Assembly (NCBI GenBank): GCA_951812955.1
Contig: OX638340.1
Location: 1,376,001 to 1,440,000 of the forward strand
Direction of reading: 5' to 3'
Origin: an uncultured Gemmatimonadota bacterium
Lineage (GTDB): Bacteria; JAAXHH01
DNA: 64,000 nt
Both the position numbers and the translations under genes were made by a program. The notes beneath the pieces were generated by a model. It had not been told where the DNA came from. It worked only from the letters and a program-made list of their open reading frames with translations, and did not search any database. Below are positions 25,614-30,165 of this stretch, piece after piece; the first letter of the stretch is position 1; each line of letters starts with the position of its first letter.

Positions 25614-26030
25614 CTAAATCTCATCCGCCACGCGTCGGCGGGCCACTTCCTCGTTAATGTAGGCGATGATGTCCCGCGTCGACGTACCTGGGCCGAACAG
25701 TTTGCCCACGCCCAGCTTCGCGAGTTCATCCCCATCGGATTTCGGGATGATTCCTCCGCCGGTGAGGAGCATGTGGTCGACGCCTCTTTCCCGCAGCAGG
25801 TCCATTACGCGGGGGAAGATAGTCATGTGGGCGCCCGAAAGGATGCTCAGAGCGACCACGTCCACGTCTTCCTGTACGGCCGCTTCCGCGATCATTTCCG
25901 GCGTCTGGCGCAGCCCGGTGTAGATCACTTCCATACCGGCATCGCGCAAGGCGCCGGCCACCACCTTGGCGCCCCGATCATGTCCGTCGAGACCCGGTTT
26001 GGCTACGAGAACACGTATGTTGTCTGTCAT
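25614..26030 (-). CDS. Cobalamin-binding small subunit / B12-binding domain of a methylmalonyl-CoA-mutase-like enzyme
   Basis: 138 aa. …[31 protein letters not shown]… carries the DxHxxG B12-binding motif. Confidence 0.8.
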
Positions 26031-26124: not shown

Positions 26125-27063
26125 TCAGACCGAAAGTTCGTCCATCAACTCGCCGGCGGCCGCAAGGGGATGGATCTCCCTGCGGGCGACGCGTTCGGAC
26201 AGGCGGTCCATGGTGCAGTCGGCGTCCCGGAGTTTCGTCAGCCTGCCGCGCCACATTTCACCGAGCGCTTTTTCGATCGCCGAACGGCCCTGGCGCATCC
26301 GGCGCCTCCGCAGCCTTCCTTCTCCGGCGAGGTAGTCTCCGTGCGCGTCGAGTTTTTCGTATAGTCCGTCCATACCGGTGTTATCACGCGCGCTGACACT
26401 GAGGACGGGCGGTTTCCAGCCTTCCTCCCACCGTCCCAGGTCCACGATCGTCCTCAGTTCCGCGGCGAACCGGTCAGCGCCTTCCCGGTCGGCCTTATTG
26501 ACGACCAGGACGTCGGCGATCTCCATCAGACCGGCCTTCATGGCCTGTATGCTGTCGCCCGACTCCGGCGTGAGCAGGACAACGGTGGTATCGCTGACGT
26601 CGGAAACGTCGAGCGTGGACTGGCCTACGCCCACGGTCTCCACAATGATAACATCTTTACCGAAGGCGTCAAGAGCCGTCATCGCGTGGGGAGTCGCCTC
26701 CGACAGTCCGCCGGTATGGCTTCGGTCGGCCAGGCTGCGCAGGAAGACCTGCGGGTCGTCCCAGGATCCCTGCATGCGTAGCCGGTCACCGAGTAAAGCT
26801 CCTCCGGTAAAGGGGCTGGTCGGATCCACCGCGATGATGCCTACCGTGCGTCCGCTGATTCTCAACTGTTTGGTGAGGCGGTCCGTGAGGGTACTCTTGC
26901 CTGAGCCGGGCGGCCCCGTAATACCGATGCGACGGGCATTTCCTGAACGGGGATACAGCCGGTCCAATATCGCGGATCTCCGGTTCCGGTCGTTTTCCAG
27001 CAGCGTAATCACGCGGGACAGGGCAATCCGGTCGCCGTCAAGAAAACGGTCGAGTAGTTTCAT
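26125..27063 (-). CDS. meaB: Methylmalonyl-CoA mutase-associated GTPase MeaB/ArgK
   Basis: Start chosen at MKLLDRF (27063); the ORF-track 5' extension is GC-rich shadow. P-loop GITGPPGSGKST and NKAD G4 motif. 312 aa. Confidence 0.85.
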   Translation of the reverse strand: MKLLDRFLDGDRIALSRVITLLENDRNRRSAILDRLYPRSGNARRIGITGPPGSGKSTLTDRLTKQLRISGRTVGIIAVDPTSPFTGGALLGDRLRMQGSWDDPQVFLRSLADRSHTGGLSEATPHAMTALDAFGKDVIIVETVGVGQSTLDVSDVSDTTVVLLTPESGDSIQAMKAGLMEIADVLVVNKADREGADRFAAELRTIVDLGRWEEGWKPPVLSVSARDNTGMDGLYEKLDAHGDYLAGEGRLRRRRMRQGRSAIEKALGEMWRGRLTKLRDADCTMDRLSERVARREIHPLAAAGELMDELSV

Positions 27064-27077
27064 AACGTGCTCGGAGG

Positions 27078-28787
27078 CTAAACCGTACCGGGTTTTATGT
27101 CTTTTATTCTCAATTGGAGGCTGGTCTCGCCCCGAAAGGTGTTTTCCTCGAGGTTGTAAGCCAGGTCCAGGCGGTCCCGGCTGTCGTTCAGTTGATCGGC
27201 GAAGTGCGCCATTCCGAAACCGATCGCATCCATGACGCGGCCATTCTGCTTTACCCGGAATCTCAGGTGATTTTTGCCCTTCCCAATGATCCTGGGTTTT
27301 CCGACGACGCTCAGGTCGCGCGACACGAGCACGGGGTGGTGGTTCGCCGGTCCAAAAGGCCCAAGCATTTTCATCAGCTGGACCATGCGCGGGGTCATCT
27401 CGTCGAGTTCGATTTCCGCGTCTATTTCGAGCCTGGGTATGAAATCGGCCGGTGTCGCGCGCGCCGCGACCACCTCGTGAAACTTCTGCGTGAACGCCTC
27501 GATGCGGCCCTTTTCGATGGAAAGGCCCGCCGCGTGGTGATGGCCGCCGAATTGAATGAGCAGGTCGGAGCATTCCTTGATGGCGTTATACAGGTGGAAA
27601 TCGCCCACGGTGCGCGCCGAGCCCCGTCCGTTCTCTCCCTTGGTCGAGATCATCACGACCGGGCGGTTGAAGGCTTCCACCATGCGGGAAGCGACAATGC
27701 CGATGATGCCGGGATGCCAGGAGTCCGAAGCGAGAACGAGACCCTTTGCCTCCCGGAGGAACGGGTCATTCTCGACGATTTCCCTGGCCGCTTCGAACGT
27801 GAGCTTATCCTCTTTGCGCCGTCTCTGGTTCTCCTCGTCCAATTCTTCGGCCAGTTGCGCCGCTTCCTGCTGGTCTTCCGTGATCAGCAGATCGACCACG
27901 CGTGTGGCGTCGCCCATACGGCCGGCGGCATTGATGCGGGGCGCGAGCATGAAGAGCATGTGTCCCGTCGACAGTTCCTTCTCCCTCAGGCCCGCCACTT
28001 CGAGCAGCGCCTGCAGACCCGACTTGTCCGTCTGCTGCATCATGTCCAGTCCGTACTTGGTCAGCACCCGGTTCTCGTCGCGCAGGGGGACGATATCCGC
28101 CGTCGTGCCCAGGGCCACGAGGTCCATGTGCGTGTACACCGCGTTCTCCGGCAGTCCCACGTGCTCGGCCAGCGCCTGCGCCACCTTGTACGCCAGTCCG
28201 ACGCCGCAAAGCTCCTTGAACGGGTATTCGCAGTCTGCCCGCTTCGGATTCAGAATGGCGACGCTGTTCGGCAGAATATCGCCCGGAACATGGTGATCGA
28301 TGATGACGACATCGATGCCCATTTCGCGGGCCTGGTCCACTTCCACATTGGCCGTTATCCCGCAGTCGACGGCAAGAATCAGCGTTACCCCGCGGCTTCT
28401 GGCTTCCTGCAGGCCTTCGATGGACAGTCCGTAACCATCGGTCATCCGGTTGGGTATGTAGGAGGAAATCCGTTCCGTCAGCAACTTGATCGTGAGGTAC
28501 AGCAACGTGGTAGCTGTAGTCCCGTCCACATCGTAGTCGCCGAAGACCATGATGTGTTCCTTGCTTTCGATGGCGGCGGCGATCCGTTCCACGGCCAGAT
28601 CCATGTCCGCCATGAGGAACGGACTGTGCAGATCGTCCAGCGTGGGCTTCAGGAAATACCTTGCGTCGTCGAAGGTCGAAACGCCCCTGTTGAGCAGAAT
28701 CTGCGCGATCACGCGCGGTACGTTGATCTGCTCCATCATCTGGGGAACCTGGGGATGTTCGTCGTGTAGGACCCAGCGGCTGTTCAT
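27078..28787 (-). CDS. recJ: Single-stranded-DNA-specific exonuclease RecJ
   Basis: DHH motifs (IMVFGDYDVDGTTAT…, …VIIDHH…) and a DHHA1 domain. Start placed at MNSRW (28787), because the longer ORF-track start (28871) would overlap the 3' end of rnpB. Confidence 0.85.
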   Translation of the reverse strand: MNSRWVLHDEHPQVPQMMEQINVPRVIAQILLNRGVSTFDDARYFLKPTLDDLHSPFLMADMDLAVERIAAAIESKEHIMVFGDYDVDGTTATTLLYLTIKLLTERISSYIPNRMTDGYGLSIEGLQEARSRGVTLILAVDCGITANVEVDQAREMGIDVVIIDHHVPGDILPNSVAILNPKRADCEYPFKELCGVGLAYKVAQALAEHVGLPENAVYTHMDLVALGTTADIVPLRDENRVLTKYGLDMMQQTDKSGLQALLEVAGLREKELSTGHMLFMLAPRINAAGRMGDATRVVDLLITEDQQEAAQLAEELDEENQRRRKEDKLTFEAAREIVENDPFLREAKGLVLASDSWHPGIIGIVASRMVEAFNRPVVMISTKGENGRGSARTVGDFHLYNAIKECSDLLIQFGGHHHAAGLSIEKGRIEAFTQKFHEVVAARATPADFIPRLEIDAEIELDEMTPRMVQLMKMLGPFGPANHHPVLVSRDLSVVGKPRIIGKGKNHLRFRVKQNGRVMDAIGFGMAHFADQLNDSRDRLDLAYNLEENTFRGETSLQLRIKDIKPGTV

Positions 28788-28857
28788 GCAATCATTCGTA
28801 TGTTGAGGGTGATCGTGCGCAGAAGATGGAGGAAAGGCCGTGCAAAATCCAAGGTAC

Positions 28858-29252
28858 CGTAAAACGTCCAAGCCGACCGTAAGCCGAGTTCTGTACCTTC
28901 GCGGTGAAGGTGGCGATCATCTATCTGGGACGGCTGTCGCCAGCCGCCTCGTGCGACCTAACCCGAGAGTCTCCGGTTTCCCGGCGGTCGAGACGGGCCG
29001 TCTCTCCTCTCCTATTCGGTCTTGCACCGGATGGGGTTTGTCCTGCCGGACCGGTTACCCGGACCGCGGTGAGCTCTTACCTCGCCTTTTCACCTTTGCC
29101 TCCCCGAAGGGATCGGCCGTGTGTTTTCTGTGACACTTTCCGTGGCATCACTGCCCCCTGCCGTTAGCAGGCATCCCGCCCTGTGGTGCTCGGACTTTCC
29201 TCGTCCGCGCGATGGCGAACGCGATCGCCTGGACGACTTGTGACGTTTTACA
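28858..29252 (-). ncRNA. rnpB: RNase P RNA, bacterial type A (M1 RNA)
   Basis: The minus-strand sequence carries the universally conserved blocks AGGAAAGTCCGAGCACCACAGGGC (CR-I), …AAAGGTGAAAAGGCGAGGTAAGAGCTCACC… and ACAGAACTCGGCTTACGG (P4 3' strand). The P1 stem forms between AAAACGTC at the 5' end (~29249) and GACGTTTT at the 3' end (~28861). Length ~395 nt. Confidence 0.85.
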
Positions 29253-29296
29253 TCCGTTAATATACTACACTACTCGGCCAGGTTCAACCCCGTTGG

Positions 29297-29437
29297 TTAC
29301 GGAATCGCGCGTCGGGCTGCGCGCGTCGGCCGGACTGCGCGTTGTGGCCGGGCTGCGCGTTGCGGCCGGGTTGCGCGTTGCGGCCGGGTTGCGCGTTGCG
29401 GCCGGGTTGCGCGTTGCGGCCGGGTTGCGCGTTGCGG
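29297..29437. repeat. 18-nt GC-rich tandem minisatellite (gcgcgttgcggccgggtt, ~7 copies)
   Basis: Four perfect copies at 29347-29418, plus degenerate copies on both sides. Intergenic, between the stop of the Zn-ribbon gene (29449) and the rnpB 5' end (29252). Confidence 0.9.
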
Positions 29438-29448
29438 CCGGGCGGATC

Positions 29449-30165
29449 TCAGTGCTCCAGGCCTTCTTCCACGACCAGGATCCTGCCGCAGCTTTCACAG
29501 GACACCAGTCTCCGCCCCTGGCGGATCTGCAGCATGATTTGCAGTGGTATAATATGGAAACAGCCGGAGCAGGCCCCTTTCTTCACCGGTACGACGGTCA
29601 TCCCATGCAGGTTCCGCCGAATACGGTTGTATACCTTCAGGACCGGGTTCTCCACGCGCATGGCCATTCTCTTGCGCTCGTCCATTTTGACGGCGACGTC
29701 TTCGTCTACTGCCGAAAGCCTGGACTCGAGCGCCTTGCGCTCTTCGCTCAGGCGCTCGACGAGTGATTCGGTTTCACCGCGCATGGTCTCCAGCGCCTCT
29801 TGCTCGGACTCGGACTCGGAGATCAACTGCAGAATCGCGTCTTCGAGTTCGGAGATGAGGTTCTTCTGAGCCTGGATCTCGGTCTGAAGGGCGTCGTATT
29901 CCTTATTGGTTTTTACGCTGTAGAGCTGGCCCTGGTATTTTTGGACCCGTTCCTGCGCGATCTGCAGGTCCTGTTCGCGCTGACGCCTGTTTTTCTCGAT
30001 TTCCGCGACCTTCGTTACCTGGTCTGCGAGCCTGGTCTCCGCCTCGGACTGGACGGTTTCCATATCCTCCAGCTTATTGGGTATGTCTACCTTGTACTGT
30101 TCAAGGTCGTGCAGGCCCCGATCCGTTTCTTGTAATTCCAAAAGCGCTCTCAAGCTTTCCTGCAT
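29449..30165 (-). CDS. Coiled-coil C4 zinc-ribbon protein (COG1579/DUF164 family)
   Basis: 238 aa. Long heptad-repeat coiled coil (MQESLRALLELQETDRGL…) and a C-terminal CSGC…CESCGRIL zinc ribbon. Confidence 0.7.
   Translation of the reverse strand: MQESLRALLELQETDRGLHDLEQYKVDIPNKLEDMETVQSEAETRLADQVTKVAEIEKNRRQREQDLQIAQERVQKYQGQLYSVKTNKEYDALQTEIQAQKNLISELEDAILQLISESESEQEALETMRGETESLVERLSEERKALESRLSAVDEDVAVKMDERKRMAMRVENPVLKVYNRIRRNLHGMTVVPVKKGACSGCFHIIPLQIMLQIRQGRRLVSCESCGRILVVEEGLEH

Follow-up and report, generated by a model that had tools for sequence, protein, structure and literature searches.

A full-length class A RNase P RNA gene predicted directly upstream of recJ in an uncultured bacterium

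The window analyzed here, a whole stretch of 64 kb from contig OX638340.1, carried on its minus strand a CT398-like gene and recJ, separated by a region in which a gene for the RNA component of RNase P (rnpB) was predicted. In the order of transcription, the locus comprised the following features.

29449..30165, minus: gene for a CT398-like protein of 238 aa with a coiled coil and a C4 zinc ribbon (PF24481, E 3.3e-14; PF02591, E 1.3e-08)
29259..29287, minus: predicted sigma-70-type promoter of rnpB, with TTGAAC (29287..29282), a 17-nt spacer and TATATT (29264..29259)
29251..28859, minus: predicted rnpB, 393 nt
28788..28858, minus: non-coding rnpB-recJ spacer of 71 nt, with a conserved island, CACGATCACCCTCAA, at 28817..28803
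27078..28787, minus: recJ coding sequence, predicted ATG at 28787, 569 aa, with DHH, DHHA1 and RecJ_OB domains

Rfam 15 was scanned across the whole 64-kb window with cmscan, and the sole match above the gathering score (GA) was to RF00010 (RNaseP_bact_a), at 29240..28865 on the minus strand, with a score of 274.8 bits against a GA of 100 and an E-value of 1.2e-88. The match was not truncated, covering model positions 1–367 of 367, and class A stayed the best model for the locus in the Rfam clan competition. This bore out the original prediction of an rnpB gene on the minus strand, for which a covariance-model search had been suggested as a check; the score lay far above threshold, and the P4 helix formed as described below. 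The interval first proposed, 28858..29252, was within 1 nt of the footprint ends on either side, and the three blocks that had been taken as diagnostic all lay on the minus strand, each occurring exactly once in the 64-kb window.

29201..29178, minus: block AGGAAAGTCCGAGCACCACAGGGC, single occurrence in the window
29081..29068, minus: block GGTAAGAGCTCACC, single occurrence in the window
28894..28877, minus: block ACAGAACTCGGCTTACGG, single occurrence in the window

Based on the model match and on the structural and comparative analyses, the minus-strand segment 29251..28859 is almost certainly a full-length rnpB gene of 393 nt, encoding a class A bacterial RNase P RNA. RNase P RNA is a ribozyme that, together with the small RnpA protein, removes the 5′ leader from precursor tRNAs, and the product of this rnpB is presumed to be the ribozyme for that cleavage. 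No tRNA genes were found in the 64-kb window.

For comparison, 55 loci encoding RecJ relatives were taken from species-representative genomes, 20 of which were close relatives with RecJ identities of 81–99%. In all 20, this RNA gene lay directly upstream of recJ, on the same strand. In the 21-way alignment, conservation set in abruptly at GTAAAACGTC (29251) and was lost as abruptly after GACGTTTTAC (28859), and these sharp boundaries of the footprint give a functional RNA of 393 nt. When identity to the window was calculated over 18 relatives, leaving out two near-identical ones, the rnpB segment reached 96%, while the segment upstream of the -35 box had 33%, the promoter region 58% and the rnpB-recJ spacer 46%. 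A decayed rnpB pseudogene is unlikely given the 96% conservation between variable flanks and the full-length match to the model.

Scanning of the region for promoters returned two sites against 0.3 expected, of which TTGAAC-17-TATATT was the only one on the minus strand. Both hexamers were kept in the relatives, while the sequence of the spacer between them varied. G29251 lies 8 nt past the -10 box, a distance that is 7 nt in most relatives. Since a conserved promoter places its -10 box 8 nt before G29251, transcription is inferred to begin with the RNA’s first base, and rnpB would be driven by its own sigma-70-type promoter with a start at G29251 or within a base or two of it. A start at this position implies that the mature RNA retains the extended terminal helix and has a 5′ end that needs no processing. 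For the 3′ end, a position of about 28859–28861 would be expected, produced either by processing or by termination at the UUUU run with which the long terminal helix closes.

Between the stop codon of the CT398-like gene (29449) and the -35 box (29287), an 18-bp tandem repeat of about 6.4 copies with 95% matches was present at 29313..29442. The gap between the CT398-like gene and rnpB was a hotspot of repeats in relatives as well (L001, L002, L004, L009, and L012), with differing repeat content: about two repeat copies were present in L002 and a different unit of about 20 bp in L004, while the repeats of L009 and L012 duplicated the -35 box (GGGGTTGAACCGC) three or four times. Relatives of the L005 type had no gap at all, and the upstream stop codon overlapped the -35 box.

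The secondary structure was drawn by hand on the window sequence from the Rfam alignment and the known class A architecture. The pseudoknots P4 and P6 are not representable in a covariance model and were added by hand. All helices, P1–P5 and P7–P19, and both pseudoknots formed in the window sequence. The elements that bear most on the assignment were as follows.

29240..29231 with 28878..28869, minus: canonical P1, CAAGUCGUCC/GGUCGGCUUG
29189..29197, minus: 5′ strand of P4, AAG-U-CCGAG, inside the GAGGAAAGUCCG block, in which U29194 is the bulged, universally conserved base
28881..28888, minus: 3′ strand of P4, CUCGGCUU (CUCGG-CUU), inside ACAGAACUCGGCUUA
29004..28990, minus: P17 hairpin, GAGAC-GGCCC-GUCUC, whose loop GCCC (28998..28995) forms P6
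28896..28910, minus: P19 hairpin, CCUUC-ACCGC-GAAGG, between the 3′ strands of P2 and P4
28961..28963, minus: GGU motif of L15, read directly from the sequence, CUCUCGGGUUAGGUC

Base pairing was evaluated in an alignment of 36 homologues, comprising the window, the 20 close relatives, 13 Eisenbacteria-like loci and two from Neomarinimicrobiota. Standard pairs filled 93.0% of the pair cells, compared to 33–46% when the 3′ partners were slid by 1–3 columns, and changes on both sides were found in 67 of the 124 pairs; none of 500 shuffles reached the observed pairing values. P4, built from the GGAAAGUCCG and ACAGAANNCGGCUUA blocks with the bulged U included, formed all eight of its pairs; pairing was complete (100%) in 35 distinct homologues, and both sides had changed in two of the pairs. 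The P1–P4 fold singled out for scrutiny in the original prediction was thus found intact. The covariation of P4 extended across lineages, with CCGAG/CUCGG in the window and Eisenbacteria, CCGGA/UCCGG in Neomarinimicrobiota, and CCGGG/CCCGG in the Rfam consensus. P6, in which GGGC (29181..29178) pairs with GCCC of the P17 loop (28998..28995), was likewise 100% paired, and one pair changed on both sides. The Rfam alignment treated this P17 hairpin as an insertion and placed the P17 of the model on a neighboring extra hairpin, yet the true P17 is probably the hairpin at 29004..28990, because its loop forms P6. The P19 hairpin was found in 36 of 36 homologues, and four of its five pairs changed on both sides.

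The specificity helices typical of class A, P13 (29086..29068) and P14 (29066..29047), were present, the latter capped by a GUAA loop; class B RNAs have P5.1, P10.1, and P15.1 instead. GNRA-type loops were found in L9 (GUGA), L14 (GUAA), and L18 (GCGA). The GNRA loops of L9 and L18 make interdomain contacts with P1 and P8, respectively (PMC8457005, PMC9945441), and the GGU of L15 is the binding site for the 3′-CCA end of tRNA (PMC9945441). Three non-canonical appositions occurred in the helices of the window, a U-U in P1, a C-A in P13, and a U-U in P14. Some relatives had standard pairs at these three sites, and the P1 site was mismatched in many relatives. To judge from these sequences, the three appositions look like lineage variation rather than decay.

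Two further elements were confined to the approximately 21 close relatives found, a 10-bp extension of P1 and a hairpin beside P17.

29242..29251, minus: 5′ strand of the P1 extension, GUAAAACGUC, pairing with 28868..28859
28859..28868, minus: 3′ strand of the P1 extension, GACGUUUUAC, with conservation ending after C28859
28971..28986, minus: extra hairpin with a GNRA tetraloop, C-G-CCGG-GAAA-CCGG-A-G, situated after P17 and before the 3′ strand of P16

The P1 extension is AU-rich and stacks past the canonical P1 across a one-nucleotide bulge. The P1 helix of the original prediction, AAAACGTC (29249..29242) with GACGTTTT (28868..28861), falls within this extension; the two strands were complementary as claimed, but they do not constitute the canonical P1 and belong to the clade-specific addition. 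The extension was near-invariant in the 20 close relatives: L018 had an A-to-G substitution and L011 and L019 a C-to-U substitution, all wobble-compatible, and L007 had a C-to-G mismatch at the pair adjoining the bulge. It was mostly unpaired in Eisenbacteria and Neomarinimicrobiota, distant homologues with only about four extra pairs. Given its invariance in the clade, the predicted pairing of the extension is backed by complementarity and by wobble-compatible changes, with no changes on both sides. The extra hairpin was a 13-nt insertion relative to Eisenbacteria (alignment A2). Most relatives had GAAA as its loop, while L012 had GCAA and L016 had GUAA, so that the GNRA character was kept; the outer pair of the hairpin was C-G in the window and U-A in L014.

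Compared to the class A RNAs of RF00010, such as the M1 RNA of E. coli and the P RNA of Thermotoga maritima, the window RNA had the same core helices and the same pseudoknots P4 and P6. It contained the conserved blocks GAGGAAAGUCCG, GGUAAGAGC, and ACAGAANNCGGCUUA together with the bulged U in P4, and also shared the two-nucleotide interruption of P10/P11, P13/P14, the GGU of L15 and the GNRA-type loops L9, L14, and L18. It differed from them in a P1 that was 10 bp longer (GUAAAACGUC/GACGUUUUAC) beyond a one-base bulge, in short P3 and P12 helices, and in the 13-nt insertion next to P17, which forms the extra hairpin with its GNRA cap. P19 is an optional element found in many class A RNAs (PMC9945441). 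Expansions of the P15/P16/P17 region, P16.1 and related helices, have been described for class A RNAs of the PVC superphylum, e.g., Methylacidiphilum infernorum (PMC9945441). An extra helix in the P16/P17 arm, P19 and a retained L15 GGU were common to these and the window RNA (PMC9945441). Nevertheless, the window RNA had neither P18.1 nor an extended P9, and its lineage is a different one, consisting of MAGs labeled Gemmatimonadetes or Candidatus Latescibacterota. With the RNAs of Eisenbacteria and Neomarinimicrobiota MAGs (L020–L037) it shared the gene order and P19, and with Eisenbacteria also the P4 variant CCGAG/CUCGG. Those RNAs had neither the 10-bp P1 extension, with about four extra pairs in its place, nor the hairpin beside P17. 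The Neomarinimicrobiota RNAs had a large expansion of P12 instead, along with the P4 variant CCGGA/UCCGG; that of L037 (1210..1703), listed alongside L034, was 494 nt long. The P1 extension, the extra hairpin and P19 are variations within the class A family and not departures from it, since both P19 and additional helices of the P15/P16/P17 arm are established optional elements of class A.

A protein-coding reading of the region would require that one of the overlapping ORFs is real, or that recJ begins at TTG 28871. Five mechanically called ORFs overlapped rnpB.

28840..29133, plus: ORF of 97 aa
28904..29167, plus: ORF of 87 aa
29121..29243, plus: ORF of 40 aa
29212..29766, plus: ORF of 184 aa
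28792..28920, minus: ORF of 42 aa

Four of the five, the plus-strand ORFs at 28840..29133, 28904..29167, and 29212..29766 and the minus-strand ORF at 28792..28920, were scanned against Pfam, and none of these four matched a family. An ORF in the upstream repeat had a sub-threshold Pfam match only, to the repeat family DUF1388 (22.5 bits against a cut-off of 25.9). Some public gene calls do extend RecJ upstream (P0017, P0021, and P0030), in line with a coding region, but the extended N-termini were dissimilar to one another and that of P0030 was the P4 3′ strand in translation. Moreover, substitutions in the region tracked RNA base-pairing rather than codon structure, indels in the spacer were not multiples of three, and 11 of the 20 relatives had no in-frame start upstream. 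The coding reading was rejected on the Pfam nulls for the four ORFs scanned and on the pattern of substitutions, and its probability is close to nil.

The longest recJ ORF opened at TTG 28871, inside the 3′ strand of P1, and would encode 597 aa, overlapping the 3′ end of rnpB just as had been pointed out at the outset. The start favored in its place, at Met 28787, agreed with the lengths of orthologues, the protein alignment, DNA conservation, the in-frame starts of relatives, and solved structures. Almost all close RecJ orthologues were 569 aa long, which is the length obtained from ATG 28787. In the alignment of RecJ N-termini, which the original prediction had put forward as a check, M29 and W33 of the long ORF were nearly invariant and fitted the start at 28787; the M-x-x-R-W motif to which they belong reached Latescibacteria, KSB1, and Eisenbacteria, the start there being a TTG after GGAGAG. 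No alternative in-frame start existed upstream of the recJ ATG in 11 of the 20 relatives. DNA conservation resumed at ATG 28787 after the indel-rich spacer, with 94% identity over the first 27 nt compared to 46% in the spacer, and the N-termini of solved RecJ structures mapped within about five residues of Met 28787. The 569-aa protein matched PF01368 (E 4e-25), PF02272 (E 2.3e-15), and PF17768 (E 3.8e-31). The over-extended public models, P0017 (579 aa), P0021 (619 aa), P0030 (606 aa), and P0085, had mutually unrelated extensions, and P0030 opened with MKVQNSAYGRLG, a literal translation of the P4 3′ strand of rnpB.

Another candidate start lies further downstream, at the Met-Met pair beginning with ATG 28739 (‘MMEQINVPR...’), where six gene calls of 552–553 aa begin (P0022–P0026 and P0028); neither ATG, 28787 or 28739, is preceded by a Shine-Dalgarno sequence. 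However, the 16 codons between 28787 and 28739 were conserved in protein well outside the clade, as M-x-x-R-W-x-L/F in Latescibacteria, KSB1, and Eisenbacteria, and the codons from 28787 were conserved in DNA too, with the first 27 nt far above the spacer in identity (94% vs. 46%). The majority of gene calls (569 aa) start at 28787 and not at 28739, and the N-termini of the solved structures map near M29 of the long ORF. The downstream start is thus very improbable, and recJ is predicted to begin at ATG 28787, 71 nt downstream of the rnpB 3′ end, and not at TTG 28871.

The order CT398-like gene, rnpB, recJ was kept in the clade, in 15 Eisenbacteria-like loci and in both Neomarinimicrobiota loci; the loci with this order outside the close relatives were L020–L034, L036, L037, and L052. 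It was not kept in the fetched loci of Longimicrobium, Gemmatimonadaceae, Rhodothermales, Nitrospirae, Myxococcaceae, and Verrucomicrobia. In L039, a Gemmatimonadaceae MAG, recJ directly followed the CT398-like gene, and no rnpB was detected in the interval. Immediately downstream of recJ, at 25614..26030 and 26125..26988 on the minus strand, were a gene for a MeaB-type GTPase (PF03308, E 1.2e-81) and a second ORF that, by eye only, looks like a small methylmalonyl-CoA mutase subunit of the B12-binding type. For MeaB, the longest ORF (482 aa, start at 27573) overlapped the end of recJ, and its predicted N-terminus is probably over-long.

The MAGs of the close relatives (L001–L019 and L053) are titled either ‘Gemmatimonadetes bacterium’ or ‘Candidatus Latescibacterota bacterium’, and their RecJ proteins were 88–99% identical to that of the window, with near-identical rnpB. 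The similarity of the window RecJ was 64% to Latescibacteria entries and about 42% to Longimicrobium and Gemmatimonadaceae. RecJ similarity and the rnpB synteny appear to fit a Latescibacterota-like placement better.

The spacer between rnpB and recJ was variable, measuring 42–84 nt in the close relatives with indels that were not in multiples of three, and 42 to about 130 nt when the clade, Eisenbacteria and Neomarinimicrobiota were taken together. Its sole conserved island was CACGATCACCCTCAA, fixed about 15 nt before the recJ ATG in nearly all relatives, which looks like the 3′ terminus of 16S rRNA and not like a Shine-Dalgarno sequence. The spacer motif GATCACCCTCAA was rejected as a genome-wide upstream element, as seven matches with up to two mismatches were found in the window against 5.2 expected, and only the recJ copy was exact. 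A conserved RNA fold in the spacer was also rejected, with single-sequence folds of 10 relatives sharing no common structure. Crude consensus scans of the minus strand detected neither an intrinsic terminator nor a sigma-70-like promoter between rnpB and recJ; the single terminator-like match was on the plus strand, inside rnpB, and within chance expectation.

The lack of a detected terminator between the genes suggests that recJ may be transcribed, in part at least, by read-through from the rnpB promoter. More broadly, rnpB and recJ, perhaps together with the CT398-like gene, could share a conserved transcription unit, in which the terminal helix of about 20 bp (P1 and its extension) would serve as a signal for processing or partial termination that frees the ribozyme and sets recJ expression. 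The gene order and orientation kept across the clade, Eisenbacteria, and Neomarinimicrobiota are consistent with such a unit, as are the scans that detected no intrinsic terminator or sigma-70-like promoter between the two genes, the 42-nt spacers of the shortest-spacer relatives, which leave little room for a separate recJ promoter, and the GACGUUUU end of the terminal helix, where a U run follows a stem. On the other hand, rnpB has its own conserved promoter, from which transcription would begin with base 1 of the RNA, so that at least its 5′ end needs no excision. The U run is base-paired within the terminal helix, unlike the tail of a canonical terminator, the consensus scans are crude and the consensus may not be this lineage’s promoter type, and synteny alone does not demonstrate co-transcription. 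A search of the literature for linkage of rnpB and recJ returned nothing relevant, the papers with both words concerning a TM6 bacterium.

Weighing these points, a shared transcription unit is possible but on balance unlikely, and expression of recJ by read-through, with the terminal helix perhaps acting as a processing or leaky termination signal, is a tentative suggestion from synteny and the crude scans, of similarly low probability. A fuller scheme can be imagined, in which several FCB-related candidate phyla (this Latescibacterota-like clade, Eisenbacteria, and Neomarinimicrobiota) have rnpB and recJ as one conserved expression unit, recJ expression is coupled to rnpB transcription by the clade’s unusually long terminal helix ending in UUUU, acting as a leaky terminator or a processing site, the GNRA hairpin by P17 is a lineage-specific structural brace, and the spacer motif CACGAUCACCCUCAA is a leader element of the read-through mRNA. 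That combination is doubtful.

The identification of this rnpB is routine, adding a member to a thoroughly known RNA family that is detectable by the standard Rfam model, and it leaves knowledge of RNase P itself unchanged. The catalogue of expansion elements in class A RNAs, of interest to RNase P specialists, gains two minor entries in the P1 extension and the P17-adjacent hairpin. The chief gain is in annotation: several spurious ORFs disappear once rnpB is placed at 28859..29251, and the start of recJ is set at 28787. The mis-annotation that had been feared is already in public protein sets, where RecJ models of related genomes run into rnpB. Finally, the conserved order of the CT398-like gene, rnpB, and recJ raises a small, testable question of whether these genes are co-transcribed.
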